This document shows, piece after piece, positions 8,769 to 28,662 of a stretch of DNA of 64,000 nucleotides. Position 1 is the first letter of the stretch; the number at the start of each line of letters is the position of its first letter. The notes beneath the pieces were generated by a model. It saw only the letters and a program-made list of their open reading frames with translations. It was not told the origin of the DNA and made no database searches. Source of the DNA: an uncultured Chlorobiaceae bacterium (GTDB lineage: Bacteria; Bacteroidota; Ignavibacteria; UBA10030; SZUA-254); assembly GCA_964484465.1 (NCBI GenBank), contig CAZAFL010000003.1, positions 11,731-75,730 of the forward strand. The letters are read 5' to 3'. A program made the translations under genes and the position numbers.

Positions 8769-8905
8769 TGAAAATCAGACTGGTGGTCGAATCGGAATTT
8801 ATACCAATCTATCAAGTATAAGTCCGAAAGTCAAGAACTGTCCCACAACGAGGCGGTGAGACAGCTCTTGATGATTTCGAGAATCTGTACGGTTATTGCT
8901 GCGGT

Positions 8906-10390
8906 TTAATTTTTTTCTTCCAGGACGGGCGCTTTTCCCAGGACGTCATCTATTGTCATATTCTGAATCGGTGCAAGATTCAGTCCGGATATTCCCTTTT
9001 CAATTTGCTGACGGTCACCCACGACAACAATTGCCATTTTCTCTGGGTCAAGATACTTTTTCGCAACCCGCTCCACATCATTCTTCGTGACGGCCAGAAT
9101 GTTTTTGACGTAATTGTTAAAATAATCATCCGATAAATTATAGAAGACAAGGTCGGACAATTGAGCCGCAACCGCTGCAACCGACTCGAAATTTTCGGGG
9201 TAACGTAACGTGAGATAATTTTTTGCCCGAATCAGTTCATCATCGGATACAGGCTGACGGATACCGGTAAGTTCTTTCATAAATTCGACCAGTGACTTAT
9301 CTGTTACTGCAGTTTGGACCGCCGCCCGGGCGATAAAGGGGCCGGGAAGCGGGCGGAAATCGAACGATGAACCCGCGCCATAAGTATAGCCATGCTGTTC
9401 ACGCAAATTCTGATTGAGCCGGGAAGTAAACGAACCGCCAAGTATCGTGTTCATCACAAGCAAAGGATAGTAATCCTCGGTCAGTCGTGGAACACCGAGA
9501 CTGCCGATGCGGATCTCCGACTGAGCAGCGGAAGGTTTGTCGACCAGATAAATTTGGCGTGACGTTAGTTGACCTACACTCTCCCATGACGCCTTGGGAA
9601 TCTGTTGAGCTTCCCATTTTCCCAGCGCTGCCTCAATTTTCGGTTGAATGGTTTCCCTTGTAATATCCCCGACGACGATCAGAATTGCATTATTCGGATG
9701 AAAGTAGGTTGTATGGAATGATTTTATATCGTTCACACTGATCGTCCGGATGGTTTTCTCATCGCCGATTGTCGGAATACCGTATGGATGATGTGTTCCA
9801 AATACGGTGCGGTTGAATATCACGGAAGCGATCGAACGCGGCTCGTCGTGCCATTGTATGAGCGTTGTCAGCCGCTCTTTGCGTTTTCTTTCAAGCTCTT
9901 CAGGCGAGAACATCGGCTTCAATGCTATATCTGAAAACAGCACAAGCGCCGAATCGAGTTTGGACAAAGGCGTATGAAGAATAACGTTTGATGTATGTTG
10001 ACCTGCAAACGTGGAAATGTCGGCACCAAGATAATCGATTGCATCAGCAAGCTGAAGAGCGTTTCTGGAACCGGCCCCTTCTTCCATCATGGCAACTGCC
10101 ACGCTGGCGAGACCCGGTTTATCTGCCGGATCATTGGCAGAACCGGCTTTTACCAGCAATTCCATTTGAACAAGCGGTACTTCATGCTTTTCCATCAATA
10201 CGACAGGCAAGCCGTTTGACAGCGTAAAGTGGGTGATTGGCGGCAGCTTTAGCGAGGGAGGCGGTCCGAGTTTCGGAGGCATTGACCGATCCACTTTTTG
10301 AGCATCCGCGAGAGATGGCTGTATCAGGGAGAATACAAGAAACAGTATTCCAGTTAATAACGTGATTGTCAAGTACCTACTCCAATTCAT
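8906..10390 (-). CDS. M16-family peptidase, catalytically inactive-type subunit (no HxxEH)
   Basis: M16 fold signatures (GSxNDPxxxPGLA, two-domain length) but no HxxEH motif. It has a signal peptide, and its start overlaps the upstream M16 gene. The ATG at 10390 (MNWSRY..) is preferred over the TTG at 10447. Confidence 0.7.
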   Translation of the reverse strand: MNWSRYLTITLLTGILFLVFSLIQPSLADAQKVDRSMPPKLGPPPSLKLPPITHFTLSNGLPVVLMEKHEVPLVQMELLVKAGSANDPADKPGLASVAVAMMEEGAGSRNALQLADAIDYLGADISTFAGQHTSNVILHTPLSKLDSALVLFSDIALKPMFSPEELERKRKERLTTLIQWHDEPRSIASVIFNRTVFGTHHPYGIPTIGDEKTIRTISVNDIKSFHTTYFHPNNAILIVVGDITRETIQPKIEAALGKWEAQQIPKASWESVGQLTSRQIYLVDKPSAAQSEIRIGSLGVPRLTEDYYPLLVMNTILGGSFTSRLNQNLREQHGYTYGAGSSFDFRPLPGPFIARAAVQTAVTDKSLVEFMKELTGIRQPVSDDELIRAKNYLTLRYPENFESVAAVAAQLSDLVFYNLSDDYFNNYVKNILAVTKNDVERVAKKYLDPEKMAIVVVGDRQQIEKGISGLNLAPIQNMTIDDVLGKAPVLEEKN

Positions 10391-10391
10391 A

Positions 10392-11750
10392 TTATTTGCC
10401 CTCCTTCCGGCCTGCGGCGGCGAGTTCCCGTTTTCCTTGCGGTACAACGCTCAAAACAAGACAGCCATCATCCCTTAAGTATGTTTGTGCTACAGTTTCA
10501 ATGTCATCGGCATCCACGGCTTTGTAGCGTGCGAGGTCTTCATTAAAATAATCCGGGTTTCCTGTTTCCGTATAATAATCCCCCAGCTGGTCTGCCTTGC
10601 CTGGGATGCTTTCCAACCTATCGAGAAAACTCGCTTCATACTGATTAACGGCACGTTTGAGCTCCCGTTCTGATGGCGCCTCGCGCTTCATGCGCTTTAA
10701 TTCTTCACGTATAACGGTCTCAATCTCTGTCAGTGTGTGGCCACTGCGGGCAGTAGCGACAACGTAAAACTTTGAAGCGAGCTTTCCCGATGCTTGAAAC
10801 GCTGAAACATCCTGTGCGATTTGCAGATCATAGACCATTCGTTTGTACAGTCTCGAATTTTTCCCGCCGGCAAATATACTTGCAAAAATATCCAGTTCTG
10901 CATCGCCAGGTGAAAAATGTGTCGGCGTGAGCCAGACAAGATATAATCGTGGCAATTGTACTTTATCCTCGGTTACCAGTCGTTTCTCTTCTGTCAATAC
11001 AGCCGGTGGGGGTGCAATGGGTTCGACCGGCTTACCTGCAGGAACGTCCTCAAACCACTTATTCATGAGTTTCTTGCACTCGGTATAATTAATATCACCT
11101 GCGATGACCATGTGGGCATTATTTGGTATATAATATTTCTTAAAGAAATCTACTACATCCTGGTAACCCGCAGCGGTGAGATCATCCATGTAGCCAATTG
11201 TAGGCCAATGATAAGGGTGTTCGGGGGGAAAGATATTCTCATCGATAATTATCGGCGCCATTCCGTACGGCCGGTTTTCGTATGATTGCCGCCGCTCGTT
11301 CTTTACAACATCGCGCTGCTGGTCCACGCGCGCAGGTGTCATCACATCGAGCAGATATCCCATGCGATCGGATTCAAGGAATAACGGAAGTTCAAGTGCA
11401 TTGCTTGGGACATTTTCAAAATATTTCGTCCGGTCTGTCGTCGTCGACCCGTTGTTATCACCGCCTGCAGCTTCCAGCCATTGGTCGAATTTACCTTCAG
11501 GCACATGGCCAGATCCCTCAAACATGATATGTTCGAAGAGATGCGCAAAACCGGTCCGCCCCGGCTTTTCCCTTCCTGAACCGACATGGTACCAGATATT
11601 TACCGAAATTACCGGTATTGAGTGATCCTCATGTAAAATGACCTGCAAGCCGTTATCAAGTGTAAATTTTTGATATTTAATTTTCAGTTGAGCAGATACC
11701 AACGAAACAGCACTCGATAACACTACAAAAAACAGAATTCGTAGTTTCAT
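10392..11750 (-). CDS. M16-family zinc peptidase, active-type subunit (pitrilysin/insulinase-like)
   Basis: HxxEH zinc motif HLFEH in GFAHLFEHIMFEGS, signal peptide MKLRILFFVVLSSAVSLVSAQ, 452 aa. It is directly followed by the overlapping inactive-type partner. Confidence 0.8.
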   Translation of the reverse strand: MKLRILFFVVLSSAVSLVSAQLKIKYQKFTLDNGLQVILHEDHSIPVISVNIWYHVGSGREKPGRTGFAHLFEHIMFEGSGHVPEGKFDQWLEAAGGDNNGSTTTDRTKYFENVPSNALELPLFLESDRMGYLLDVMTPARVDQQRDVVKNERRQSYENRPYGMAPIIIDENIFPPEHPYHWPTIGYMDDLTAAGYQDVVDFFKKYYIPNNAHMVIAGDINYTECKKLMNKWFEDVPAGKPVEPIAPPPAVLTEEKRLVTEDKVQLPRLYLVWLTPTHFSPGDAELDIFASIFAGGKNSRLYKRMVYDLQIAQDVSAFQASGKLASKFYVVATARSGHTLTEIETVIREELKRMKREAPSERELKRAVNQYEASFLDRLESIPGKADQLGDYYTETGNPDYFNEDLARYKAVDADDIETVAQTYLRDDGCLVLSVVPQGKRELAAAGRKEGK

Positions 11751-16609: not shown

Positions 16610-17884
16610 TCACGCTGCGTTGGTTGAGGCGGCAGGTTTGAAAATGATTGTTGAAAAATTTTCCAGTTGGAAAAGACGTTTTGCCGTTTCAAAAACCTGC
16701 TCTGCAGTGACTGCTTCAACTTTTTTCAAAATAGTGCTCAGCGGAAGATAATTTCGGACATACATTTCACCGCTTCCCAAACGCATCATCCGGCTCGACA
16801 TGCTCTCGAGGCTCAGCATCATTGTCCCTTTGAGCTGGGCTTTCGTTCGTTTCAATTCGGCGTTCCCTACCGGTTTCGTCGTCAGCTTGTTCAGCTCTTT
16901 GTGAATGAGCTCAATTGAATTGTCAACATTCTGCGCATCCGTTCCGATATAGACGCCAAAATTACCGGTGTCGCTGAGAAGGTTGCTGTACGAATAGACA
17001 CTATACGCGAATCCGTATTTCTCACGAATGTTTTGAAACAAGCGTGAACTCATCCCTTCGCCAAGCAATGTGTTGAGGACGAGAAGAGGATACCGAAAAT
17101 GACTTTTTACGCTGTAGCCGATCGTACCGAGACAGACATGCGCCTGGCTGATGGGTCGCTCAAACTCTTCCCGCTTCGAGTAGACACGGTTTGAAACCGA
17201 GGCCCGCTTGGCTTGATTACGTTGCGGCTTACGGGATCGAAAATACTGTTCAACCAAATCAACGACTGCCTGATGCTTTAAATTTCCCGCTGCTGCAACT
17301 ACAATCCGGTTTGATGTATAATGGGTCTTCGCATGGTTCAGCAAATCATCTTTCGTAAAATTCCTGATATTTTCGGCTTTTCCGATCACTGGAAAACCTA
17401 GCGGGTGCTTATAATAGACACGATGGTCGAGGTAATCGTGAATAAGGTCGTCCGGGTCGTCTTCGATATTCTTCAATTCTTCCAGTACGACAAATTTCTC
17501 CTTTTCCATCTCCTTTTTATCGATAAGAGGATGTTGCACCAGTTCTGAGAGAACGTTGACTGCTTTCGCGAGATGTTCATCGAGTATTCGCGCATAAAAA
17601 CAGGTGTGCTCTTTGGACGTAAACGCGTTGAGGTATCCTCCGACCGATTCTAGACTCTGCGCAATCTGCTGGGTTGTAAATTGTCGAGTTCCTTTAAACA
17701 CCATATGTTCGACGAAATGGGAAATGCCGTTGTTATGTTCATTTTCATCCCGGGAACCGACATTAATCCACACTCCGATGGAAACTGACCGCACATATGG
17801 AATTTCTTCAGTAACAATCCGGATACCGTTTGGTAGGACAGTTTTTTTGTAATTAGACTGGTCAGATGAAAGAATGTCCGACAT
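16610..17884 (-). CDS. M16-family zinc peptidase (active type)
   Basis: HxxEH motif HFVEH (GISHFVEHMVFKGT), 424 aa, two-domain M16 architecture. Confidence 0.8.
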   Translation of the reverse strand: MSDILSSDQSNYKKTVLPNGIRIVTEEIPYVRSVSIGVWINVGSRDENEHNNGISHFVEHMVFKGTRQFTTQQIAQSLESVGGYLNAFTSKEHTCFYARILDEHLAKAVNVLSELVQHPLIDKKEMEKEKFVVLEELKNIEDDPDDLIHDYLDHRVYYKHPLGFPVIGKAENIRNFTKDDLLNHAKTHYTSNRIVVAAAGNLKHQAVVDLVEQYFRSRKPQRNQAKRASVSNRVYSKREEFERPISQAHVCLGTIGYSVKSHFRYPLLVLNTLLGEGMSSRLFQNIREKYGFAYSVYSYSNLLSDTGNFGVYIGTDAQNVDNSIELIHKELNKLTTKPVGNAELKRTKAQLKGTMMLSLESMSSRMMRLGSGEMYVRNYLPLSTILKKVEAVTAEQVFETAKRLFQLENFSTIIFKPAASTNAA

Positions 17885-18028: not shown

Positions 18029-18652
18029 TCAGACCGCTCTGAGCATCTCTTCTATCTTTGTCGCAACCATGTCGATGGCGACTTCATTTTCTCCCCCCTT
18101 TGGAATAATTACATCAGCCCAACGCTTGCTCGGCTCGACGAATTCGAGGTGCATCGGTTTTACGGTGGCAACGTACTGATGCATCACGGATTCAAGAGAT
18201 CTTCCCCGCTTAAGCAGGTCACGTCGAAGTCTTCGCAACAGCCGTTCATCGGCATCGGTATCGACAAAAATTTTGATATCCATAAGATTGCGAAGTTGTT
18301 TTTCCACAAAAATCAGTATCCCTTCTACAATGATGATATTTCTCGGTTCAATCGATAATGTTTTTGAGGAACGCCGGTATGTTGTAAAATCGTAGACCGG
18401 CTGGTGAATCGATTTCCACTGTCGTAACTGCTGAAGATGTTCGACGAGAAGTGATGTCTCGAGGGCATCCGGATGGTCGAAGTTAACTTCATCCGGTGAA
18501 TGCCCGTCAAATGATGAAATATCCTTATAGTAAGAATCATGCTGGAGAACGACAACCTTCCCAAGGTCGAGACGCTCCAGGATTTTATTCGTTACAGTCG
18601 TTTTTCCGGAACCAGTCCCGCCTGCTATCCCTATAATCAATGGATGTTTCAT
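18029..18652 (-). CDS. udk: Uridine kinase
   Basis: P-loop IGIAGGTGSGKTT at the N-terminus (PRK/uridine kinase family). Start trimmed to MKHPLII. Confidence 0.75.
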   Translation of the reverse strand: MKHPLIIGIAGGTGSGKTTVTNKILERLDLGKVVVLQHDSYYKDISSFDGHSPDEVNFDHPDALETSLLVEHLQQLRQWKSIHQPVYDFTTYRRSSKTLSIEPRNIIIVEGILIFVEKQLRNLMDIKIFVDTDADERLLRRLRRDLLKRGRSLESVMHQYVATVKPMHLEFVEPSKRWADVIIPKGGENEVAIDMVATKIEEMLRAV

Positions 18653-18775
18653 ATTTTCGCGAGTCAATATAACGGAAACCCTTCGGAGAAGCAAGGAGCG
18701 GTTGGCGGCAGGAGTATCCGTTGTTTCGGTCGAATTGTTTTTTTACATTGTTCAGTTCGCAACAGAACTTATGAC

Positions 18776-19876
18776 ATGATCATCACAACTCTCCTCATTT
18801 TCGCAACAATTGCATACATTATTGAGTTCACGTTACTTCGCGCCGGGCTCAACAAGGCAGACTGCGCAAAGAAAAACCTCCACTACACGCCGAATGTTTC
18901 TATTATTGTTGCAGCAAGAAACGAGGAAGAACATATAGAGCAATGTCTCACGTCGCTCTCGCTGCTTGATTACCCGAAAGAAAAACTCCAAATCATCGTT
19001 GTCAACGACAGGTCAACTGACCGGACTCAGGAACTTGTTATCCCCTTCATCCGCCAATATCCGTTCATGAAACTGATTACCACATCGCCGGAGAAGGATA
19101 ATCTTCGGGGAAAGGCGAACGCCGTCGCTCAGGGGATTGACAATTCCAACGGGGAAATAATGATGTTGACTGACGCCGATTGCACAGTACCGCGGAACTG
19201 GGTACGGGAAACTGTTCAATACTTTGATGAAAATGCCGGAATCGTCGGTGGATTCACATTGCTTGACGCGAACAAAACCTTTGAGGGAATGCAAACATTA
19301 GATTGGATTTTTCTCTTCGGACTGGCTTCTTCGGCGGTCGGATGGAAGATCCCTTTAACCGTTATCGGGAATAATTTTTCTGTGCGACGGTCCGCATACG
19401 ATGCTGTCGGCGGGTATTCGAGTATTCCGTTCAGTGTTACCGAAGATTATGCTCTTGTGCAGGCGATAATCCGGAGAACAGCATTCGATGTCCGGTTCCC
19501 CGTTAACCCGCAAGCAGTGGTGAAAAGCCGGGCATGTCTTAACTGGGGTCAGCTATTTCGTCAGAAACAGCGATGGAGTGTCGGCGGCCTTGAGATGGTG
19601 TTCAGCGGCATGCTGATTACATCGGTCGTCTGGTTAACAAACCTCATGCTGGTCGCCGGGTTGTTCTTTGTTCCCTTGCCACTTTGGCTTGCGGCTTTTA
19701 GCGGAAAATCCATTATGGATGTCCTTTTTCTCTGGAAGCCTTTGAAATGTTTTAACGCCCGTCGATCTCTCAGATATTTTCCCGCATTTGAGTGTTATAT
19801 GGTGCTCTATGTCCTTATCGTTCCGGTTGTAGCACTATTTAGCAAGAACATCGTCTGGAAAGAGCGCACATTATAA
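18776..19876 (+). CDS. Family-2 glycosyltransferase, processive type (membrane-anchored; DXD and Q(K)QRW motifs)
   Basis: N-terminal TM helix, VSIIVAARNEEEHI, TDADCTVPRNW (DXD) and QKQRW; C-terminal TM helices. Start trimmed to MIITTLL (ATG at 18776), removing the antisense overlap with udk. Confidence 0.7.
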   Translation: MIITTLLIFATIAYIIEFTLLRAGLNKADCAKKNLHYTPNVSIIVAARNEEEHIEQCLTSLSLLDYPKEKLQIIVVNDRSTDRTQELVIPFIRQYPFMKLITTSPEKDNLRGKANAVAQGIDNSNGEIMMLTDADCTVPRNWVRETVQYFDENAGIVGGFTLLDANKTFEGMQTLDWIFLFGLASSAVGWKIPLTVIGNNFSVRRSAYDAVGGYSSIPFSVTEDYALVQAIIRRTAFDVRFPVNPQAVVKSRACLNWGQLFRQKQRWSVGGLEMVFSGMLITSVVWLTNLMLVAGLFFVPLPLWLAAFSGKSIMDVLFLWKPLKCFNARRSLRYFPAFECYMVLYVLIVPVVALFSKNIVWKERTL

Positions 19877-19945: not shown

Positions 19946-20971
19946 TCAGGCGCGGCTGCGCGAGCTTATAATATTCAGTCGTTTGAGTTTATAACGGAGC
20001 GTCTGCTCAGTCATGCCGAGGAAAATTGCCGCCTTCGATTGATTGAATCCAAATTTCTGCAACGCACGCTCAATAATACCCTTCTCAATAACATCGAGCG
20101 ATTTGTCGAGCACAAAATCCTGACCGGTTACAATATTGTTGATCATTTTCACGACCTCAGTCTTCTCATCGACGAGTTCGGGCGGAAGCATGAAACGACC
20201 GCCGCTTGAGAATAAAACTGATTTGTCGACAACGGCTTTCAGTTCCCTGATATTTTCCCGCCAACTCTGACGGACCAGAACGTCGATCGCATTGATATCG
20301 ATAACGAGCTCACCAATACCGATCTCTTTGCACAATTCGCCGGCAAAGTGTTTTACAAGAAGCGGAATATCTTCCGGTCGTTCACGAAGAGCCGGAATTT
20401 CAACCTTCTCAAAGTCGGCCATCTTTGTATACAAATCTTCCAGTAATTTCCTCTTATCGACAAGGCTTTTGGGTTCTTCTTTCACCGTCACAATGAGGCG
20501 AATATCGACAGGTTCAGAACGTGTGCCACCGATACGACGGGAGGTCCGTTCGTTCATGAACGCAAGGATCTTCATTTGATTGCGGAAGCTCGCTTCCTCA
20601 ATTTCTTCGATCAATACTGTGCCGCCGTTGGCAAGTTCAAACAGCCCCCTCCTGGTGGTATACGGCAATCCTTCGGCACCGCGGTCAAAGCCGAAAAGAA
20701 TCGATTCCAATTCTTTATCGTCCAGGACAGAGAGATTGATTGACATGAAAGGGGGATTGCTTTCAGGCGTTCGACCCGATGAATAAATATTCTTTGCAAC
20801 GGCGCCTTTTCCAACACCTGCTTCACCGATGACCACGACATCGCGTCGCGTTTTCGAAAGCCTCTGAATCTGCTTCACAAGTTGATCAACTGCACGGCTC
20901 TTCCCGATAATCGGGTATTCCATAACGGTTTTTTGTTCCTCAGCAGTTTTGACTTTCCTATCTTTTTCCAT
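19946..20971 (-). CDS. AAA+ enhancer-binding-protein-like regulator (sigma54-activator fold) lacking GAFTGA, with C-terminal Fis-type HTH; no receiver or sensor domain
   Basis: Walker A GEAGVGKG. The region that aligns to GAFTGA..GGTLFLDEIGE reads GAEGLPYTTRRGLFELANGGTVLIEEIEE. C-terminal HTH is AAIFLGMTEQTLRYKLKRL. Confidence 0.7.
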   Translation of the reverse strand: MEKDRKVKTAEEQKTVMEYPIIGKSRAVDQLVKQIQRLSKTRRDVVVIGEAGVGKGAVAKNIYSSGRTPESNPPFMSINLSVLDDKELESILFGFDRGAEGLPYTTRRGLFELANGGTVLIEEIEEASFRNQMKILAFMNERTSRRIGGTRSEPVDIRLIVTVKEEPKSLVDKRKLLEDLYTKMADFEKVEIPALRERPEDIPLLVKHFAGELCKEIGIGELVIDINAIDVLVRQSWRENIRELKAVVDKSVLFSSGGRFMLPPELVDEKTEVVKMINNIVTGQDFVLDKSLDVIEKGIIERALQKFGFNQSKAAIFLGMTEQTLRYKLKRLNIISSRSRA

Positions 20972-20991: not shown

Positions 20992-22125
20992 TTATTTACT
21001 GGAAGGATTTTGAAACAATCTTCCGTTGAAAATCTTGAAATTGAAAAAATGTGCCAGCACAATATTGTCGACCCAGTCTCTCCATCTGCTCACCTGCTGA
21101 GGATGGGCTGCAAGCTCGGATTCGTAGAACTCTCCCTGGACCGATGTAATGAACCGCAACCGCAAGCCGAAAAATAACGCCATCATCAATTGAATTATGA
21201 CTGTGATATACTGACCGATTGTAAACAATTCCGTCCACGAATTGAGCTCGACGCTTTTGATGTATCCCCATTGATGCAATATATCAGTGGAGACAAATAA
21301 TAGGAACAGGAACATGATCTTGTCGATATACGCCCCCTGGGGGGGGTCTTTCTTGTACTGGTATCCGAAGAAAAGAAGAACAAACATGATAATCATGATG
21401 TTCATGTAAATCATGTTAAAATACATCGGCTTCCACAATAGCACTTTGTAGCTGTCGCCGTCCAGATAGGGAATCAGTTCATCGATCCGTCTGATGTTTT
21501 CTTCCGGATAAAGGTCGCCCACAGGAAACCCGTTGCGCCATGTCTGCAGCTTCACCCTGCTCGCCAATTCCGCTGCAGTCGGCATTTCACTGCCGGAGCT
21601 TGTTGCCACAGCAGTCGACAATGTTTTGAATTGCTTGATTTCCTCCGTGGAATATAAATACATCGGGTCGGAAAAGAAGGGATGAAAATAATAACCGAAG
21701 AACATCAAAACAATCGAACAACTGATAAGATACTTTTGGTATACTTTGAAATCGCGGAACAGCAGGTCGATGACAAGATAGAGCACTGCTATTGCAAAAA
21801 ATAAAATGTATGCAATGGAAAGGTATTGTGAGAACAAGTGTCCGGCATACTTATCTGCAGTAAAAAATGCGACGCCGACAAAATCATATCCGAATTGAAG
21901 TATCATGAAAAAGTAGAAGACGACAAAATTCAAAAAGATGAATTTGTGTTTTCGGTTAGGCTCTTTCAAGAAAATAAAAAATGAGATAAAGAACAGAAGC
22001 GATTGAATTGAACGGTTTAACAAGCTTGGCAATGGGGAAGCTCTATGCGGAAACAGCACCAACAGAAGGCCGTACACGGCAAGCAGACAAGCCCAGAACA
22101 ACAATATTTTCTTTGCTAGTTTCAT
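20992..22125 (-). CDS. Polytopic membrane protein of unknown function (about 8 TM segments with a central soluble loop)
   Basis: Hydrophobic segments throughout. It ends 21 nt before the EBP-like regulator gene, so the two are likely cotranscribed. Confidence 0.6.
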   Translation of the reverse strand: MKLAKKILLFWACLLAVYGLLLVLFPHRASPLPSLLNRSIQSLLFFISFFIFLKEPNRKHKFIFLNFVVFYFFMILQFGYDFVGVAFFTADKYAGHLFSQYLSIAYILFFAIAVLYLVIDLLFRDFKVYQKYLISCSIVLMFFGYYFHPFFSDPMYLYSTEEIKQFKTLSTAVATSSGSEMPTAAELASRVKLQTWRNGFPVGDLYPEENIRRIDELIPYLDGDSYKVLLWKPMYFNMIYMNIMIIMFVLLFFGYQYKKDPPQGAYIDKIMFLFLLFVSTDILHQWGYIKSVELNSWTELFTIGQYITVIIQLMMALFFGLRLRFITSVQGEFYESELAAHPQQVSRWRDWVDNIVLAHFFNFKIFNGRLFQNPSSK

Positions 22126-22259
22126 GACCTATAGGGAATTAACTTACCTTACCTCATTTTTACCCCTAAAGATAGATATTTAACATATTCTTGTCAAGGG
22201 AATTCGCAATTTTTTTTTAATACACGTAAAAAAGGTGATGGTGCGCACGACAGTATTTT

Positions 22260-22276
22260 CGTGAAAATTTTTCACG
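22260..22276. promoter_or_regulatory. Perfect 17-bp palindrome (candidate operator) in the divergent promoter region
   Basis: CGTGAAAA-T-TTTTCACG. Nearby are direct repeats TTT(A/T)CCCCTAAA(G/A)ATA at about 22160 and 22279, and ACACGTGT at about 22323. Confidence 0.5.
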
Positions 22277-22392
22277 TTTTTCCCCTAAAAATATTGACGG
22301 TTTTACGCTATTTATATATCTTACACGTGTACCTCTGCCAAAGAAAATTCTTTTTTACCAATCACAATAGTATTACGAAGGAGAAGTTACCT

Positions 22393-22671
22393 ATGTCAAA
22401 ATCTGCTATCCGCAAGCGCAATGTAAAGCGTTTTCGGTCGATCTTGATCACGATGGCGCTGGTAGTGGCAACGAATTTTGCCATTTCCTATGCGAACGCA
22501 GGATTTGGAAACAAAGCCGGACTTTCAATGATTCCGGATTCACCGAGACCGAAAGCCGGGCTCTCGATGATTCCCGATTCTCCACGGCCGAAAGCCGGAC
22601 TTTCAATGATTCCGGATTCACCGAGACCGAAAGCCGGGCTCTCGATGATTCCCGATTCTCCTCGTCCATAG
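22393..22671 (+). CDS. Small signal-anchored/secreted protein with four exact tandem 13-aa repeats (KAGLSMIPDSPRP)x4
   Basis: RBS GAAGGAG 6 nt upstream of the ATG. Basic N-terminus (MSKSAIRKRNVKRFRS) followed by a hydrophobic stretch ILITMALVVATNFAISYANA. Four 39-bp units (22513..22668) alternate A-B-A-B' with only synonymous differences. A dedicated terminator follows. Confidence 0.65.
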   Translation: MSKSAIRKRNVKRFRSILITMALVVATNFAISYANAGFGNKAGLSMIPDSPRPKAGLSMIPDSPRPKAGLSMIPDSPRPKAGLSMIPDSPRP

Positions 22672-22689
22672 TACAACAATTTCCCCATA

Positions 22690-22742
22690 GAAGGCTCTGA
22701 ACAAAGGCGCATTTGCGCCCCGCAGAGCCTTTCTGTTTTTTT
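22690..22742 (+). terminator. Compound intrinsic terminator after the repeat-peptide gene
   Basis: AAGGCTCTG...(inner hairpin GGCGCATTTGCGCC)...CAGAGCCTT followed by TCTGTTTTTTT. Confidence 0.6.
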
Positions 22743-22800
22743 GTGCTTCTTTACTTTTGCAATGGTTTTCTGTATCTTCTTCTAGATACTTTCAAAAATC

Positions 22801-23799
22801 GTGGAAGAAGTAAACCAAGACAACGTTGTTTCACCGGAGAAGCACAGGGCAATCTTCACCAGGCTTCCTCGGTTATCCCTTCACATTTTCCTTTTCATTT
22901 TAACATTCTTTACAACCACCCTTGCAGGTATCGGATGGCTCAATAAAGACCCTCTCGAACTGACAAATTTCTCGCTGGGATTACCATACTCACTCAGCCT
23001 GCTCGCCGTTCTTGCCGCACACGAATACGGTCATTATTTCGCTGCAAAATTTTATAGGATCTCAACAACATATCCTTATTTCATACCGTTTCCGTCGGTC
23101 CCTCCTCTGATCCTTAACCCTTTCGGAACAATGGGCGCCGTTATTCGCATCCGCACACCAATTACATCTAAAAAGGTCCTTTTTGATATCGGCATCGCGG
23201 GGCCACTTGCAGGCTTAGTCGTGACTTTGGGCTTACTCTTTTATGGATTTTTTACCATGCCCCCCAAAGAGTACCTCTTCTCCATTCATCCGGAATATGC
23301 CGGAATGGATTCAATCCCCAGCGCTGGACTTACCCTCGGAAGTTCTCTTTTCTTCTGGGCAATATCCAAATTCTTTGCACTCAGCACGTTTGTTCCACCT
23401 ATGAATGAAATTTACCATTATCCTTTCCTTTGTGTAGGCTGGTTCGGTCTTTTTATCACAGCCCTTAACCTGATTCCCGTCGGACAATTAGATGGAGGAC
23501 ATGTTCTCTATGCACTCATCGGCCGCAAACAGGGTATAATCGCCCGAGTATTTTTTGTCGGATTAATCCTCACCGGATTATTAAGTTTCATTCCCTTCTT
23601 CGGCGGAAATATTCAGACCGGGACACTCGGATGGCTGGTCTGGGCAGGCATACTGTTCTTCCTTATAAAACTTGACCATCCCGAAATTTTCGACGATTCA
23701 GCACTTGATAAAAGACGAAAAGTTTTGGGATGGGTCACGTTCGGCATTTTTATCGTAACATTCCCGCCGGTTCCTTTTTATCAAATATTAGGAAGTTAA
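22801..23799 (+). CDS. Site-2 protease family (M50) intramembrane metalloprotease, PDZ-less
   Basis: HExxH within a TM segment (AAHEYGHYFAA) and the LDG motif NLIPVGQLDGGHV (NxxPxxxLDG). Polytopic, 332 aa. Confidence 0.75.
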   Translation: MEEVNQDNVVSPEKHRAIFTRLPRLSLHIFLFILTFFTTTLAGIGWLNKDPLELTNFSLGLPYSLSLLAVLAAHEYGHYFAAKFYRISTTYPYFIPFPSVPPLILNPFGTMGAVIRIRTPITSKKVLFDIGIAGPLAGLVVTLGLLFYGFFTMPPKEYLFSIHPEYAGMDSIPSAGLTLGSSLFFWAISKFFALSTFVPPMNEIYHYPFLCVGWFGLFITALNLIPVGQLDGGHVLYALIGRKQGIIARVFFVGLILTGLLSFIPFFGGNIQTGTLGWLVWAGILFFLIKLDHPEIFDDSALDKRRKVLGWVTFGIFIVTFPPVPFYQILGS

Positions 23800-23951
23800 C
23801 GTCATACGAACAACTGAATCGGTATTCTTGACTTTTGGCTTCATATTTCTTAGCTTAATCATAAGAGATTTAAGAAATCAGTCATACCGGGCTCCATGGA
23901 AAAGAACTTACAGTGAATGGCAGCTCGGTTTTTTGTAATGTATCGTCACTC

Positions 23952-25130
23952 ATGCGGATCGCTTTTCATTCTATACCCTCAATTCTCGTAGTAAGCTTAT
24001 TTTTTTTCTCTTGTGAAAAGGAACGAAACGGGTCTCTGGATTCTTCTATAAATCCACCGTTTCTATCTGGCGCCAGCCTCATGACCTCAATAATTAATCT
24101 GGATGATACTGCAAACACATTCATAACACGACTCCCGGACGGGACATTCAGCATCTCTGATTCTATTACTGCAGTGGTTTCCGACCCCGATGGCATACAG
24201 GATATCTCAAGGGTATATTTCCAGATCTATCATCCTGGAAACGCAAACCCCGATGCCAAACAGTTGCTCATAAAAAGTGGCAACATAGCGGTTTCAGGAG
24301 GCGGGGAAGGTCTTATCTTTACCGGGAAGCTTTCCTTTAATATAGACCGATCCCAAACGGGAATTTACAGAGTGGAAGTATTTGCTGTCGACAAGAGTAA
24401 TTCGATCAGCAATACTCTTCTGCGGCCTGTTATCATTACTGTGAATAATCGACCGCCACATCTTGGAATTCCTTCGTACCGAGAATATTCCCCTCCCGGC
24501 TCAGATTCGGCTACATTTACGTTTTTCGTCGCAGCTACCGACTCTGACGGCATTGAAGATATTTCGTCAGTCACAGTCCAACCGTTGTTTGCATCCGATA
24601 CATCTGTTAAATCGATGTATGACGACGGATTACCAGAACATGCAGATAACGTGCCAGGTGACGGAATTTATTCAACGAGATTTTCCATTGACACGGCTTC
24701 TCTCAGCCTGATTGAATTTCGATTTTTAGGAAAGGACAAATCCGGCGCCCTCAGCAATATCGTCAGGCGAACATTGCATAATAGACCTCCCGCATTTCTT
24801 AATTTAGATGTTCCGGATTCCATCCAGCGACCCCTCTCGGGCGTCGTTGTAGTGCAATTCTCAGCGACCGTGACTGACCTCGACAGCTTAAGCGATATTG
24901 ATTCGGTTTATTTCCGGAATTTCAGCTCAATCAATCCCTTAAACATCTTTCAGATGTACGATGACGGGAATTTTGCACAGCACGGCGATTCCACGGCAAA
25001 CGACGGCATATATTCATTTCTCGCACAAGTAGACCCATCGACTTCTCTCGGTGTGAAAGAGTTTCATTTCTATGTGGTCGATAAAGCCGGCGCGCGGGAT
25101 GAGCGTATTAAATACATAACAATTTATTGA
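23952..25130 (+). CDS. Putative lipoprotein with three tandem ~100-aa Ig-like repeats
   Basis: Signal peptide ending in the lipobox-like FFFSC. Three repeats share D(P/S/L)DG(I/L)xDI(S/D)xV ... DGIYS motifs. Its stop overlaps the start of the next gene (TGAATG). Confidence 0.55.
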   Translation: MRIAFHSIPSILVVSLFFFSCEKERNGSLDSSINPPFLSGASLMTSIINLDDTANTFITRLPDGTFSISDSITAVVSDPDGIQDISRVYFQIYHPGNANPDAKQLLIKSGNIAVSGGGEGLIFTGKLSFNIDRSQTGIYRVEVFAVDKSNSISNTLLRPVIITVNNRPPHLGIPSYREYSPPGSDSATFTFFVAATDSDGIEDISSVTVQPLFASDTSVKSMYDDGLPEHADNVPGDGIYSTRFSIDTASLSLIEFRFLGKDKSGALSNIVRRTLHNRPPAFLNLDVPDSIQRPLSGVVVVQFSATVTDLDSLSDIDSVYFRNFSSINPLNIFQMYDDGNFAQHGDSTANDGIYSFLAQVDPSTSLGVKEFHFYVVDKAGARDERIKYITIY

Positions 25131-26801
25131 ATGCGCTCCGGAAAGTTTATATCGCTGGCAATTCTTATCCTCCTTTCCTTCGCGTACCAAAACCTCTCCT
25201 ATGCACAGGGAACTTTCGCGAAGGGCTACAAGCTCGAAGGAGTTTCCTCTTCACAATCGAGCAACCTCCCCATCAGTAACAGCGTTTCGCAGATAGTAGC
25301 TGCTGATTCCATTCTATGGGCAGGAACGGGGAAAGGCGTTATGAAAAGTGCAACGTTCGGAGCCAGTTGGGAAAACTTTTATTCAGAAAAAGCCTTTGCA
25401 AATGAAGGCATCTTTGCTCTCGCAGTCAACGGAGATACTATCTGGGCGTCAACGGGTTATGACAAAGATGTTGGCGGAGACCAGACGATTCAAACCGGGA
25501 GCGGATATGCTTTTTCAATTGATGGCGGCATTACTTGGAAACACGTCAACCAGCCGCTCGATACCTGTATTCAGCTTCCCTCCTCTGATGGAAGACGAAT
25601 TTGTAAGAAAGATATTCTCAAACCCTACGGCATTAACAGCGGTACAACAACAACTGCGGTTACAACAACTGTCGCAAACGTATCGTATGACATTGCACTG
25701 GGCCCCGGCACGGTGTGGGTCGCTAGCTGGTCAAGCGGTTTGCGAAAATCCACAAATAACGGATCTACCTGGGAAACCGTCCTCCTCCCCCTGGATAACC
25801 TGAACTCGCTAAGACCAACCGATACCCTCTGGTCTTTTCATCCGAGCGATACCTTGCGTGCGGATACACTCTTCCCATTTTTCGATGTTGTACTCAACGA
25901 TAACTTAAAGGCATTTGCCGTACATGTTTCCGATAACGGGCAGACGATATGGTGCGGGACAGCAGGAGGCGTAAATAAATCCACTGACGGCGGTGTCAGC
26001 TGGGAAAAATTTTACAACAACAATTCTCAGGCAACACGGATTCTCAGTAACTGGGTGTATAGAATAGGCGAGCAGCATTTTCAGGGAAAACAACGTATCT
26101 GGACAACGAACTGGAAGAAGGAACCTCCGAGTTATTACGACCTCCCACAGGAATACGGGGTTAGCTATACGGATGACGATGGCAGAACGTGGAAGAACCT
26201 CCTTCAAGGGATAAAACCGTTTAATTTCGCTTTCAAGGATTCCATTGCATACATCACGACTGAAAACGGGCTCTACCGCACGGCGGACGGAGGCTTAAGT
26301 TTCACTAACGTATCAAATATCGTCGACCCTGTATCACATCAAATCATCACAACAACACAATTTATTTCAGTCGGAGTCATCGGCGATACCGTTTTTGTTG
26401 GAACTGACGCAGGAATCGCCTCAACTGTTGATAACGGAACTATACCGTTCGGTTCTTCCTGGAAAATCTATCGGGCATACCAGGCAGTAGGGTCGTCGCC
26501 AACAACTTATGCATACCCCAATCCTTTTTCCCCCGATCTGGAGCTTGTAAGAATCCACTATGGATCAAAAGCCTCATCGGCTTCATCGACGCGGAATGTA
26601 AGCATTGAAATTTTTGATTTCGGAATGAACCACGTGCGAACTCTCGTGAATAATGCACAACGCTCTGCTTCCCTCGAATATGATGAATTGTGGGATGGAA
26701 GAAATGATGACGGGAGACAGGTCGCAAACGGGGTATATTTCTACAGAATTAAAGTAGACAGTGACGACCCGACGTATGGAAAAATTTTAGTGCTGCAATG
26801 A
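25131..26801 (+). CDS. Secreted BNR/sortilin-like repeat protein with T9SS type-A-like C-terminal domain
   Basis: Signal peptide MRSGKFISLAILILLSFAYQNLSYAQG. Motifs SIDGGITWK, STNNGSTWE, STDGGVSWE, TDDDGRTWK. C-terminus YAYPNPFSPD...WDGRNDDGRQVANGVYFYRIKV. Its stop overlaps the next start. Confidence 0.7.
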   Translation: MRSGKFISLAILILLSFAYQNLSYAQGTFAKGYKLEGVSSSQSSNLPISNSVSQIVAADSILWAGTGKGVMKSATFGASWENFYSEKAFANEGIFALAVNGDTIWASTGYDKDVGGDQTIQTGSGYAFSIDGGITWKHVNQPLDTCIQLPSSDGRRICKKDILKPYGINSGTTTTAVTTTVANVSYDIALGPGTVWVASWSSGLRKSTNNGSTWETVLLPLDNLNSLRPTDTLWSFHPSDTLRADTLFPFFDVVLNDNLKAFAVHVSDNGQTIWCGTAGGVNKSTDGGVSWEKFYNNNSQATRILSNWVYRIGEQHFQGKQRIWTTNWKKEPPSYYDLPQEYGVSYTDDDGRTWKNLLQGIKPFNFAFKDSIAYITTENGLYRTADGGLSFTNVSNIVDPVSHQIITTTQFISVGVIGDTVFVGTDAGIASTVDNGTIPFGSSWKIYRAYQAVGSSPTTYAYPNPFSPDLELVRIHYGSKASSASSTRNVSIEIFDFGMNHVRTLVNNAQRSASLEYDELWDGRNDDGRQVANGVYFYRIKVDSDDPTYGKILVLQ

Positions 26802-27754
26802 AGAAAAAGATGCTCTATGTTGTTTTAATGTTATTGCTGCCTTTCGGGCTTTTTGCTCAGATCGGAGGTACAGCCGGCGCATTTTCTCGCCTCGGTTTCG
26901 GGGCACGGGGAATGGGAATGGGAAATGCGTTAACTGCTGTCAGCACTGGCGATATCAGCACGTATTATAATCCTGCGCTGGCAGCGTTCAGCGATCAACG
27001 GACAATCGCCGCTTCGTTCGGCATTCTCTCCCTCGACCGCTATCTGAATTTCATCAGTTACACGCAATCGATACAATCTCAGGCGGGCATCTCCGCCGGA
27101 CTGATCAACTCGGGCGTGCGAAATATTGATGGACGTGATAACGACGGCGTCCACACCGATGATTATTCAACCTCGGAAAATCAGGTATATCTTGCGTTTG
27201 CGAACCGCGTCGACCCTCGTGTCTCCCTCGGCGTCTCGATCAAACTTCTTTACAGCAGACTCTTTGACCAGGTGACTTCGTCAACTGTCGGTTTCGATGT
27301 TGGCGGGTATTTCCAGTTGACCGATGAGCTATCCGCCGGACTCACTGTTCAGGATCTAAATTCAAAATACAAATGGAATACACAATCGGTGTATGGTTCA
27401 GAGAATGGAGGACAAAGGCAAACACAAAACGATTTTCCTACACTGGTCCGTGTCGGACTCGCTTATCGCCTGCCGCAAAACACCGGCGTTGTATCTGCAG
27501 AGTTCGAAAATTCTTCGGAACACACAAACAGCATACGCCTCGGTGCAGAATATAGTATGATGGAATACTTTAGCGTTCGGAGTGGCATTGACCGGTGGGA
27601 ATTTGGCGACAACACAACCGGAGTGAAACCGACGTTTGGATTTACTGCAAAAAAATCGTTTAATCAATGGACGCCGGCTGTTACCTATGCATTTATTGTT
27701 GAAGGGTTTAGCCCTCACGGCATACATATGATCACACTCTCAACTACATTTTAA
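26798..27754 (+). CDS. FadL/PorV/PorP-like outer-membrane beta-barrel protein (paralog 1)
   Basis: Signal peptide, then the FadL/OMPP1-type N-terminal motif LGFGARGMGMGNALTAV..DISTYYNPAALA. C-terminus ends in an aromatic residue (..STTF). Confidence 0.55.
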   Translation: MKKKMLYVVLMLLLPFGLFAQIGGTAGAFSRLGFGARGMGMGNALTAVSTGDISTYYNPALAAFSDQRTIAASFGILSLDRYLNFISYTQSIQSQAGISAGLINSGVRNIDGRDNDGVHTDDYSTSENQVYLAFANRVDPRVSLGVSIKLLYSRLFDQVTSSTVGFDVGGYFQLTDELSAGLTVQDLNSKYKWNTQSVYGSENGGQRQTQNDFPTLVRVGLAYRLPQNTGVVSAEFENSSEHTNSIRLGAEYSMMEYFSVRSGIDRWEFGDNTTGVKPTFGFTAKKSFNQWTPAVTYAFIVEGFSPHGIHMITLSTTF

Positions 27755-27756
27755 GT

Positions 27757-28662
27757 ATGAAAAAGCAGATTCTCGTATTCACTCTCTTGCTCATTACCTG
27801 CAGAACATTCTTATATTCCCAGGCTGGGAGTACGGGGTTATCTTTCCTGAAACTTGGCGTTGGTGCAAGGGCGCTCAGCATGGGCGAAGCATATACCGCA
27901 ATCGCATCGGACCCTTCGGCAACGCATTACAACCCGGCAGCATTATCGCTGATGAACAATTCTCAAATCTTATTGATGCATAAGGAATGGATTCAGGATA
28001 CAAAGACAGAATTCCTCGCAGCGACAACGTCATTCGACAAGTTTAATGCTGGTATTAGTATCAACGGCACGACAATCAGCGATATTGAGCTCCGCACAAC
28101 TCCCGGTCCTGCACAGGGAACGTTTACAGCACGCAACGCCGCTATCGGAATTTCCGCTTCTTATGCACTCGATACGGCGCTGAGCGTGGGCGCAACTATG
28201 AAATACCTTTATGAAAAAATTCTTGTCGATGAAGCCAACGGATTAGGGTTCGATATCGGGGCTATTTACAGGACACCATGGGACATCCGGCTGGGTGCGG
28301 CTGTCTGTAACCTGGGGTCAATGAACGAATTGCGGAATGAGTCGTCAAAACTTCCACAAATGGTAAGATTCGGTGCAGCGTATGAGTCCCGGATTGAAAG
28401 CTTCGATGGTACGTTTACCGGATCAATCGATGTGGTGACACTATCAGGCGAAAGCCTGACACACGTCCTTTTCGGTGGAGAATTAAATTACCACAATACG
28501 TTTGCATTGCGGGCAGGGTATCAGACGTCATACGAATCGAAAAATTTCACGGCTGGAATCGGTATACATTACGGGTTGATCGGACTAAATTACGCTTTTG
28601 TTCCTTTTAAATACGACTTCGGTACGACCCACACATTTTCCTTAGGGATTGAAATCCCATAA
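27757..28662 (+). CDS. FadL/PorV/PorP-like outer-membrane beta-barrel protein (paralog 2)
   Basis: Same N-terminal motif (LGVGARALSMGEAYTAIASDPSATHYNPAALS). Tandem paralog of the preceding gene, separated from it by 2 nt. Confidence 0.55.
   Translation: MKKQILVFTLLLITCRTFLYSQAGSTGLSFLKLGVGARALSMGEAYTAIASDPSATHYNPAALSLMNNSQILLMHKEWIQDTKTEFLAATTSFDKFNAGISINGTTISDIELRTTPGPAQGTFTARNAAIGISASYALDTALSVGATMKYLYEKILVDEANGLGFDIGAIYRTPWDIRLGAAVCNLGSMNELRNESSKLPQMVRFGAAYESRIESFDGTFTGSIDVVTLSGESLTHVLFGGELNYHNTFALRAGYQTSYESKNFTAGIGIHYGLIGLNYAFVPFKYDFGTTHTFSLGIEIP

Follow-up and report, generated by a model that had tools for sequence, protein, structure and literature searches.

Cell–cell or autocrine signalling by peptides is a familiar theme in Gram-positive bacteria, but for bacteria that have two membranes it has, to our knowledge, hardly been described at all. 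The staphylococcal Agr system follows a four-part logic with divergent promoters, made up of the precursor AgrD, the membrane protease AgrB, the polytopic receptor AgrC and the regulator AgrA, in which a fast-diverging peptide is combined with conserved machinery. Site-2 proteases (S2P) mature peptide signals or clear signal peptides (reviewed in PMC10202637), and Eep makes peptide pheromones from signal peptides (PMC10202637). On the side of transcription, PspF joins an AAA+ domain of the sigma-54-interaction type to a Fis-type helix-turn-helix (HTH), has no N-terminal regulatory domain and is controlled in trans by PspA, while relatives that lack the GAFTGA loop, such as VpsR (PMC6158489) and Caulobacter NtrC (10.1101/2023.06.06.543975), act with sigma-70. 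Here we describe a gene cluster within a 64,000-nucleotide (nt) stretch of contig CAZAFL010000003.1, from an uncultured Chlorobiaceae bacterium of the Ignavibacteria (the whole stretch is referred to as the window). The cluster encodes a repeat peptide (PEP), an orphan polytopic membrane protein (MEM), an AAA+ regulator and an M50 protease. Tentatively, and with a chance that we rate a little short of even, we propose that it constitutes a self-contained module of peptide ligand, receptor and AAA+ regulator in Ignavibacteria-type bacteria.

The open reading frame (ORF) listing and Pfam place the genes in the order family 2 glycosyltransferase (GT2; plus strand), regulator (minus), MEM (minus), divergent intergenic region, PEP (plus), a hairpin with a T-run, and M50 (plus). 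MEM (20992–22125, minus strand) and the regulator (19946–20971, minus strand) encode 377 and 341 amino acids (aa), respectively. The gap between them is short, as the initial annotation had it, but measures 20 nt instead of 21 bp. The divergent region separating the MEM gene from the PEP gene spans 22126–22392 and has the 267 bp originally assigned to it. The PEP gene (22393–22671, plus strand; 92 aa) is preceded by the Shine-Dalgarno sequence AAGGAGA at 22378–22384, and its ATG start codon lies at 22393, not 22394. The M50 gene (22801–23799, plus strand) encodes a PDZ-less site-2-type metalloprotease of 332 aa with ~6 transmembrane (TM) helices.

To map this arrangement across related genomes, we gathered 80 metagenomic loci via MEM, complemented by loci from look-ups, and examined in every one the stretch lying 5′ of MEM. 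The loci are related to one another, their source names denoting Ignavibacteriales or Bacteroidota metagenome-assembled genomes, mostly from one bacterial class. Wherever 650 nt or more are available on that side, a divergent PEP-type ORF was present without exception (52 of 52 unique loci; 47 recognized by a strict pattern, 5 by inspection). The recurrence of the peptide family, of its location and of its promoter layout in over 50 separate metagenomic loci goes beyond chance. Given room for the gene in question, the regulator directly follows MEM in 57/57 loci, and M50 lies beyond PEP in 33/35. Conservation of the neighbourhood thus speaks for the initial annotation's suggestion that these genes belong together. 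The flanks are looser, with GT2 adjacent in 28 of 36 loci and the gene beyond M50, encoding a choice-of-anchor protein, conserved in 19 of 26. At ~25% identity, the MEM–regulator pair persists even in three remote relatives (L087, L089 and L090), none of which has an adjacent M50 gene. MEM and the regulator therefore form the core of the cluster, to which PEP is almost always attached, M50 being a frequent but dispensable neighbour.

PEP consists of MSKSAIRKRNVKRFRSILITMALVVATNFAISYANAGFGN followed by four copies of KAGLSMIPDSPRP (residues 41–92), and neither Pfam nor NCBIfam holds a match for it. A protein search returned 27 homologues, none annotated, with 2–5 repeats each and PDSPRP at their ends; the variable repeat positions are uniform within one protein and different between proteins. 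Residues 1–36 of the window protein comprise a basic n-region, a 12-residue hydrophobic core and the sequence N28-x-A-I-S32-Y-A34-N-A36. The corresponding export or anchor segment follows a family-wide pattern, KRxR…T…N.AIS.A (consensus kr.Rs..iT..li.atN.AISya). Between KRxR and AIS-x-A, 52 sequences show zero indels, and substitutions of the T, N, A, I and S are rare. Such conservation reaches far beyond that of ordinary signal peptides and counts against a plain cleavable signal. Judged by its sequence, the segment is also compatible with a cleavable signal peptide of the Sec type: the n-region carries a charge of +6, the core (ILITMALVVAT) has 11–12 residues, and both S32-Y-A34 and A34-N-A36 satisfy the −3/−1 small-residue rule, S-x-A being found throughout the family and A-N-A additionally in the window. 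The topology initially assigned to the peptide, with the N-terminus inside, one hydrophobic segment and the repeats outside, is consistent with hydropathy and charge, and the predicted cytoplasmic part comprises ~16 basic residues in the window and about 6–16 in most homologues.

The repeats follow closely upon this segment. In ~20 members, the first unit starts directly after AISYA; single K/R residues stand only between units, and the proteins end at the last P-R-P. This layout, signal-[unit-K]n-1-unit, resembles a polyprotein precursor. Across the family, units are 12–17 residues long, proline-rich, present in 1–7 copies and nearly always terminated by P-[RK]-P, with KSGVTNIPDSPRP, KSVLSQPKPPIP, SFAADAVIPQPAPRPSN, RGSIGTLPGMGDPRPTE and KTLDPNNPIYGSPRP as examples. 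A reading of the repeats as O-glycosylation motifs was rejected because the S/T position is not conserved, as was a reading of PEP as a lipoprotein, there being no Cys. The remote relative L089 encodes, at 687–971 on the minus strand, a non-repeated small protein of 94 aa with a basic N-terminus, a longer, anchor-like TM segment and the C-terminal sequence …NNPPPPPPIP. Its ORF runs divergently to the MEM–regulator pair and has its own palindrome, TTTCGTtaatACGAAA, just 5′ of the −35 element, plus a terminator. No M50 gene was found within 7 kb. This variant suggests that the proline-rich C-terminus is the ancestral functional element of PEP.

At the DNA level, the array occupies 22513–22668 on the plus strand and consists of a 78-bp unit present twice, as detected by Tandem Repeats Finder, a repeat finder and codon comparison. 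The two 78-bp units in the window are 100% identical, and each comprises two 39-bp halves of ~80% identity that differ at 8 positions. The four 39-bp units consequently form an ABAB pattern, unit 1 matching unit 3 and unit 2 matching unit 4, which points to duplication or conversion of a block of two units in the very recent past and to a copy number that is evolving now. All differences between the halves are synonymous (22 synonymous versus 0 non-synonymous codon differences in the window). The family at large shows a similar picture. A codon-by-codon comparison of adjacent units in 53 unique genes—seeded on stretches of 5 identical residues, which slightly favours low non-synonymous counts—yielded 1103 identical codons, 774 synonymous and 54 non-synonymous differences. 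Synonymous changes hence account for 774 of 828 differing pairs, as compared with an expected share of ~27% for random single-nucleotide changes in repeat codons, implying that selection keeps the repeats identical at the protein level and that mere homogenization of the DNA does not explain their uniformity. Between lineages, by contrast, the unit sequences are strongly divergent, while remaining uniform within each protein.

The Pfam assignments of the regulator (Sigma54_activat, E = 1.1e-37, residues 21–186; AAA_lid_14; HTH_8, E = 1.4e-13, residues 292–332) confirm its initial description as a protein resembling enhancer-binding proteins, with an HTH and without a sensory N-domain. The AAA+ domain begins at residue 21, leaving no N-terminal sensor domain, and the C-terminal HTH is of the Fis type. 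The missing sensor domain implies control by a partner protein. Walker A reads GEAGVGKG, Walker B is an atypical VLIEEIEE with EE instead of DE, and alignment to NifA and NtrC1 shows the GAFTGA loop to be replaced by GAEGLP. In ~60 homologous loci, G[VA]EGLPYT or something comparable, and never GAFTGA, occupies this position. As to promoters, the window's intergenic region contains no GG-N10-GC of the sigma-54 −24/−12 type, for which the consensus is TGGCAC-N5-TTGCW, and none is conserved among the adjacent promoters of 59 loci. Since the GAFTGA loop is lost family-wide and no −24/−12 promoter lies nearby, the regulator is probably sigma-54-independent. The resemblance to PspF that had been noted initially accordingly holds for the missing sensor domain but does not extend to a working sigma-54 activator, given GAEGLP, the EE in Walker B and the intergenic region devoid of a −24/−12 element.

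Its operon partner MEM has 8 TM helices, with both termini inside. A periplasmic insert of ~70 aa separates TM5 from TM6, the cytoplasmic loop KDPPQGAY is invariant, and the protein ends in a conserved tail, …RWRDWVDN. MEM matched no Pfam or NCBIfam model, Foldseek against the PDB retrieved only insignificant matches, and a profile search of 1.84 billion representatives returned just 189 relatives. Many of the matches are fragments; full-length family members have ~350–410 residues, which in no case leaves room for an additional fused domain. Conservation is polarized across the membrane: scores reach 0.94 in the cytoplasmic loop KDPPQGAY and 0.73 in the tail at the C-terminus, as compared to 0.30–0.45 for the outer loops and 0.37, with indels, for periplasmic residues 167–192. 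A receptor that varies on the side of its ligand and is conserved on the side of its effector would show such a polarity, which is not specific proof of one. A distant subgroup (P0279, P0281, P0284, P0291, P0293 and P0294) lacks the periplasmic insert and has additional C-terminal helices. In L090, positions 8001–11525 hold two tandem MEM paralogues (391 and 397 aa) followed by a regulator that has no sensor domain and a fully degenerated GAFTGA region.

The divergent region carries a predicted promoter for each side. A promoter scan placed a sigma-70-type promoter of the MEM–regulator operon at 22169–22197 on the minus strand (−35 TTGACA, 22197–22192; −10 TATCTT, 22174–22169; 10/12 matches) and that of PEP at 22294–22322 on the plus strand (−35 TTGACG, a 17-nt spacer, −10 TATCTT), the latter with an equivalent −35/−10 pair in 43 of 53 unique loci. 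Next to the MEM promoter lies a conserved box, AATTCGCAA, at 22201–22209, which appears as AATTCGCAAAT in an alignment of 25 intergenic regions. TGTCAAG and AATTCGCAAA rank as the most conserved words, both over 53 unique intergenic regions and within the alignment of 25 loci. Two inverted repeats are candidate operators. The first, GTGA-N6-(T/G)CAC, reads GTGATGGTGCGCAC in the window (22235–22248) and starts at a fixed distance of 59 nt (57–59) 5′ of the peptide's −35 element in the window's subclade; GTGA-N6-NCAC is present in 30 of the 53 unique intergenic regions, whereas shuffled sequences lead one to expect 0.7. The second is the perfect 17-bp palindrome reported initially, which we found again as the 8+1+8 inverted repeat CGTGAAAATTTTTCACG at 22260–22276, its single occurrence in the window. 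Its centre lies ~61 nt 5′ of the predicted transcription start of the peptide gene, and it is moderately conserved in the aligned loci as TCGTnAAAAATTTT(C/A)(A/G)CG, directly 5′ of the PEP −35 element. The window contains no second match to the palindrome, even with three mismatches allowed, and no further exact GTGA-N6-TCAC, so that further members of a regulon cannot be proposed from it. The direct repeats TTTWCCCCTAAARATA that had been pointed out in the same region exist (22158–22174 and 22277–22293, 15 of 17 positions alike) but are unconserved even in the closest relative, L007. We therefore rejected them as functional elements; they are probably incidental.

Downstream of PEP, an intrinsic terminator spans 22687–22742 on the plus strand and comprises the stem AGGCTCTG with CAGAGCCT, an inner GC hairpin and then TTTCTGTTTTTTT. 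The RNA is predicted to fold with −27.1 kcal/mol (z = −4.1), and a hairpin of −8 kcal/mol or better with a T-run follows PEP in 37/48 unique loci. Its own promoter and strong terminator make PEP monocistronic, M50 being transcribed separately. An Rfam search of 21900–23000 gave no match. Between the terminator and M50 (22743–22800), we noted by eye a weaker promoter candidate for M50 (TTTACT, 17 nt, TATCTT), which fell below the threshold of the scan; the −10 hexamer TATCTT is common to the MEM, PEP and candidate M50 promoters.

These observations can be accommodated in the following model. PEP would be made from a strongly expressed monocistronic unit and would insert into the inner membrane with its N-terminus inside, by means of its basic and hydrophobic N-terminal segment. 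The repeat array would then be freed into the periplasm by signal peptidase I cutting after AIS-x-A or AxA, by an intramembrane cut of M50, or by both; alternatively, M50 might remove what is left of the conserved signal peptide, a task that RseP and Eep perform for other peptides (PMC10202637). Possibly, the array is further cut at its single basic linkers, which would yield n identical peptides of 12–16 residues. As an array or as single units, the repeats would act on the variable periplasmic face of MEM, whose cytoplasmic loop and tail would in turn control the oligomeric state or activity of the regulator from its own operon. With the GAFTGA loop lost, we propose that the regulator acts on sigma-70-type promoters, presumably via the inverted repeats, and thereby feeds back on PEP and its own operon.

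Several observations weigh against this model. The loci are related, so that the synteny counts overstate independence. The genes beyond M50 are partly syntenic too. In L087 and L090, MEM and the regulator occur without a peptide, next to an upstream MerR gene. A crude partial Mantel test that controlled for relatedness detected no covariation between the repeat units and the periplasmic regions of MEM (r = 0.04, p = 0.35). Processing into units is not universal, since a clade with 17-residue units has no basic linkers. For signalling between cells, peptides of 12–16 residues would have to pass the outer membrane by some route, and the cluster contains no exporter. Finally, the GTGA/TCAC half-sites also resemble sites of the CRP/FNR type. 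A more specific version of the model seems doubtful to us. In this version, PEP would be the polyprotein pheromone of a two-membrane bacterium, exported via Sec and cut into several identical, lineage-specific proline-rich peptides. These would be sensed by a receptor with the fold of a G-protein-coupled receptor (GPCR) that directly gates the sigma-54-independent AAA+ factor, and a dedicated PDZ-less M50 enzyme would mature or reset the precursor, giving Agr-like autoinduction and kin recognition from parts wholly unrelated to Agr.

How far M50 belongs to the proposed ligand–receptor module is a separate question. The initial identification of a minimal PDZ-less protease with HEYGH and NLIPVGQLDGG stands (Peptidase_M50, PF02163, E = 7.7e-16). 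HEYGH is located at residue 74 and NLIPVGQLDGGH at residue 223, both motifs are intact in all loci, and the M50 domain is the only one found by Pfam, with no PDZ. NCBIfam gave no match for the protein, and its weak PDB matches, with RseP, SpoIVFB and MjS2P, are confined to the region around the C-terminal catalytic motif. It is the sole ORF with M50 motifs in the window. The hydrophobic segment of PEP carries the invariant polar residues T, N and S, and S2P substrates often have polar residues in this segment; cleavage of PEP by M50 is plausible, with PEP as a candidate substrate only. Conversely, M50 may be a housekeeping intramembrane protease that is present by inherited gene order, the module then consisting of PEP, MEM and the regulator. 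This explanation, which is compatible with the model above, is a real possibility, if not one we would bet on. M50 is a separate transcription unit, all loci stem from one broad lineage, and the genes further downstream (choice-of-anchor and those of type IX secretion system (T9SS) type) are often syntenic as well (19/26). Moreover, L001, L010 and L089 keep PEP, MEM and the regulator without M50. In the main-clade locus L001, ccm genes are found in the neighbourhood instead, and in L010 pdxA and ftsE. More closely, positions 8506–9169 of L001 show PEP followed by a Lys/Cys-rich ORF of 86 aa and an HMA domain protein, and then the cytochrome c maturation genes. On the other hand, the linkage of M50 (33/35) is tighter than that of either flank (28/36 and 19/26), and it survives in L053, L061, L068 and L085 although the gene beyond has changed.

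A closer involvement of the protease was envisaged in the initial annotation, in the form of regulated intramembrane proteolysis. Spelled out, PEP would stay in the membrane as an uncleaved anchor, N-terminus inside and C-terminus outside, either bound to MEM or restraining the regulator; a signal would lead to trimming of the repeats, and M50 would then cut the TM segment and so switch the regulator. In keeping with such a scheme, M50 is adjacent in nearly all loci, with intact catalytic motifs; the hydrophobic segment is indel-free and unusually conserved, and its invariant T, N and S could destabilize a helix; its hydropathy, averaging 1.65 over 19 residues, is that of a borderline TM helix; and the L089 homologue has a longer, anchor-like segment. 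In partial Mantel tests, distances between PEP N-terminal segments also correlated weakly with those between M50 proteins (r = 0.26, p = 0.007, with the regulator controlled for), but residual phylogeny may account for the correlation; the value for the MEM core was similar. Set against these points, the cytoplasmic part of PEP amounts to ~10–16 basic residues and offers no domain able to hold a regulator. Among the conserved neighbours of the cluster there is neither a site-1 protease nor a sigma/anti-sigma pair, which could be encoded elsewhere in the genome. The small residues at −3/−1 and the units starting right after this site favour signal peptidase, M50 is transcribed separately behind a terminator, and it is not adjacent in L001, L010 and L089. 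We consider this scheme unlikely.

Alternatively, PEP might be a structural or multivalent component of the envelope, an extended proline-rich chain whose level the regulator merely sets. Anchored or free in the periplasm, such a chain would span this compartment or bind a partner in several copies. PxxPxP units are typical of extended polyproline-II ligands, copy numbers of 2–7 fit multivalency, the clade with 17-residue units has no basic linkers for processing, and the partial Mantel test detected no covariation of ligand and receptor. However, array length varies ~five-fold and single-unit forms exist (L029 and L089), which argues against a ruler or spacer, and units that are strictly uniform within each protein yet change fast from lineage to lineage are what one would sooner expect of a pair with specific recognition. 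A structural or multivalent role appears distinctly improbable.

A further possibility, to which we attach very little weight, is that PEP is a multi-copy precursor of a proline-rich antimicrobial peptide or bacteriocin, comparable to insect apidaecins, and MEM the immunity or export factor. PRP motifs and multi-copy precursors are hallmarks of such peptides, a lead that stems in part from PMC8864165, and some units (…IPQPAPRP…) resemble apidaecin-like cores. The units are nearly neutral, however, each combining a single acidic residue with one or two basic ones; the unit AGLSMIPDSPRP, for instance, contains PRP but has a net charge of 0, or +1 if the linker K is counted, and is thus not strongly cationic. 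Besides, the cluster keeps a fixed chromosomal position across the lineage in place of a patchy distribution, no ABC exporter or modification genes lie nearby, and the obligatory partner is a transcription regulator. Finally, the notion that the small ORF is a cis-acting leader or arrest peptide of the SecM/MifM/TnaC type that controls M50 is barely credible: although an N-terminal export signal, a proline-rich C-terminus with P-R-P before the stop codon and a position directly upstream of a membrane-protein gene would suit such a peptide, the terminator begins at least 16 nt past the stop codon, and 45–120 nt past it elsewhere, beyond the reach of a stalled ribosome, lineage-specific residues are uniform in every repeat, a uniformity that stalling does not require, PEP persists where M50 is absent, and no Rfam element was found.

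Beyond the four genes, the looser neighbour GT2 (18539–19876, plus strand) is convergent with the regulator gene and encodes a membrane glycosyltransferase resembling PgaC/HpnB (Pfam Glycos_transf_2, E = 4.6e-25; NCBIfam PgaC_IcaA, E = 8.8e-26, below the family cutoff), with its true start probably near 18773. A gene for a zinc peptidase of the M16 (pitrilysin-like) family occupies 16610–17884 on the minus strand, at a distance of three genes from the regulator and of five from PEP; its product bears the inverted HxxEH motif in the form HFVEHMVF. M16 enzymes are engaged in peptide processing in some systems. The gene is not kept in the neighbourhood, its place in L001 being taken by a large PAS/GAF protein. 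Downstream of M50, four genes at 23913–28662 on the plus strand encode a choice-of-anchor-X protein, a BNR/sortilin-like protein whose C-terminal domain is of the type-IX-secretion kind, and two further proteins (26798–27754 and 27757–28662), the L002 counterparts of which include a faint DUF5723 match. L002 shows the four-gene block in identical order after M50; elsewhere, only the first two genes were scored. The block may be an envelope or secretion block that neighbours the module or is regulated by it.

Searches of the literature by motif, taxon and architecture brought no earlier account of such a cluster to light, and two of the four proteins stand outside described families. We regard the cluster as new as a system, the function of which we infer. 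Were the proposed signalling role true, the orphan 8-TM protein, the predicted fold of which may be GPCR-like, would represent a new class of receptor, the regulator a new way of controlling an AAA+ transcription factor via a membrane partner and without sigma-54, and M50 a new job for PDZ-less site-2 proteases. The module would also provide a handle on social or envelope-sensing behaviour in the Ignavibacteria, which are widespread and poorly studied. Even if the signalling interpretation is wrong, two unannotated conserved families gain a genetic context and a selection signature—identical repeats—that makes them accessible to experiment.

Yeast alpha-factor, insect apidaecin, plant CLE polyproteins and the multi-core ribosomally synthesized and post-translationally modified peptides (RiPPs) of the cyanobactin PatE type are all made as multi-copy precursors. 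Like PEP on the reading proposed here, they consist of a signal or leader and then several identical short units with short linkers. They are, however, either eukaryotic or RiPPs that need adjacent modifying enzymes. In PEP, the linker is a single K/R or absent. We know of no bacterial Sec-type signal precursor made of tandem identical units. As the conserved neighbours of the cluster (MEM, regulator, GT2, M50 and T9SS-type genes) include no modifying or processing enzymes of the RiPP type, such as a heterocyclase, a subtilisin-like protease or a radical SAM enzyme, it is not a RiPP cluster.

With RseA/RseP and Eep (PMC10202637), the locus has in common an M50 protein with HExxH and NxxPxxxxDG next to a candidate substrate, either single-pass with its N-terminus inside or a signal peptide, whose hydrophobic segment contains polar residues. 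In contrast to RseA/RseP, the protease lacks PDZ, the cluster encodes neither a site-1 protease nor a sigma/anti-sigma pair, the candidate substrate has only a short cytoplasmic part, and M50 is absent nearby in several lineages. Because a cytoplasmic domain of the substrate, a site-1 protease and a sigma factor are all lacking, the cluster is not a proteolytic cascade of the anti-sigma type. MgrB–PhoQ, SafA and MzrA (reviewed in PMC12648545) offer a parallel in that the gene for a small protein with a single hydrophobic segment neighbours that for a polytopic membrane signalling protein, on which the small protein presumably acts. Those modulators, by contrast, have neither repeat arrays nor selection for repeat homogeneity, and they act on histidine kinases.

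With VpsR, TyrR and the NtrC proteins of Caulobacter and Rhodobacter, the regulator shares the lack of GAFTGA, as found in those members that act with sigma-70 (PMC6158489; 10.1101/2023.06.06.543975). It departs from them and from PspF in being both sensor-less and GAFTGA-less, with EE in Walker B, and from PspF also in its invariable operon partner, an orphan 8-TM protein that is not PspA-like. With neither GAFTGA nor a suitable promoter, the cluster is not a sigma-54 enhancer system. In overall logic, the cluster resembles Agr, but none of the Agr components is homologous to those described here: MEM has no kinase domain, and the regulator is of the AAA+/HTH and not of the LytTR type. Whereas Agr rests on a thiolactone peptide, the cluster described here, whose parts are joined by links that we infer, has its protease transcribed separately and would operate in a cell with two membranes, from a precursor of tandem identical units behind a putative Sec-type signal.

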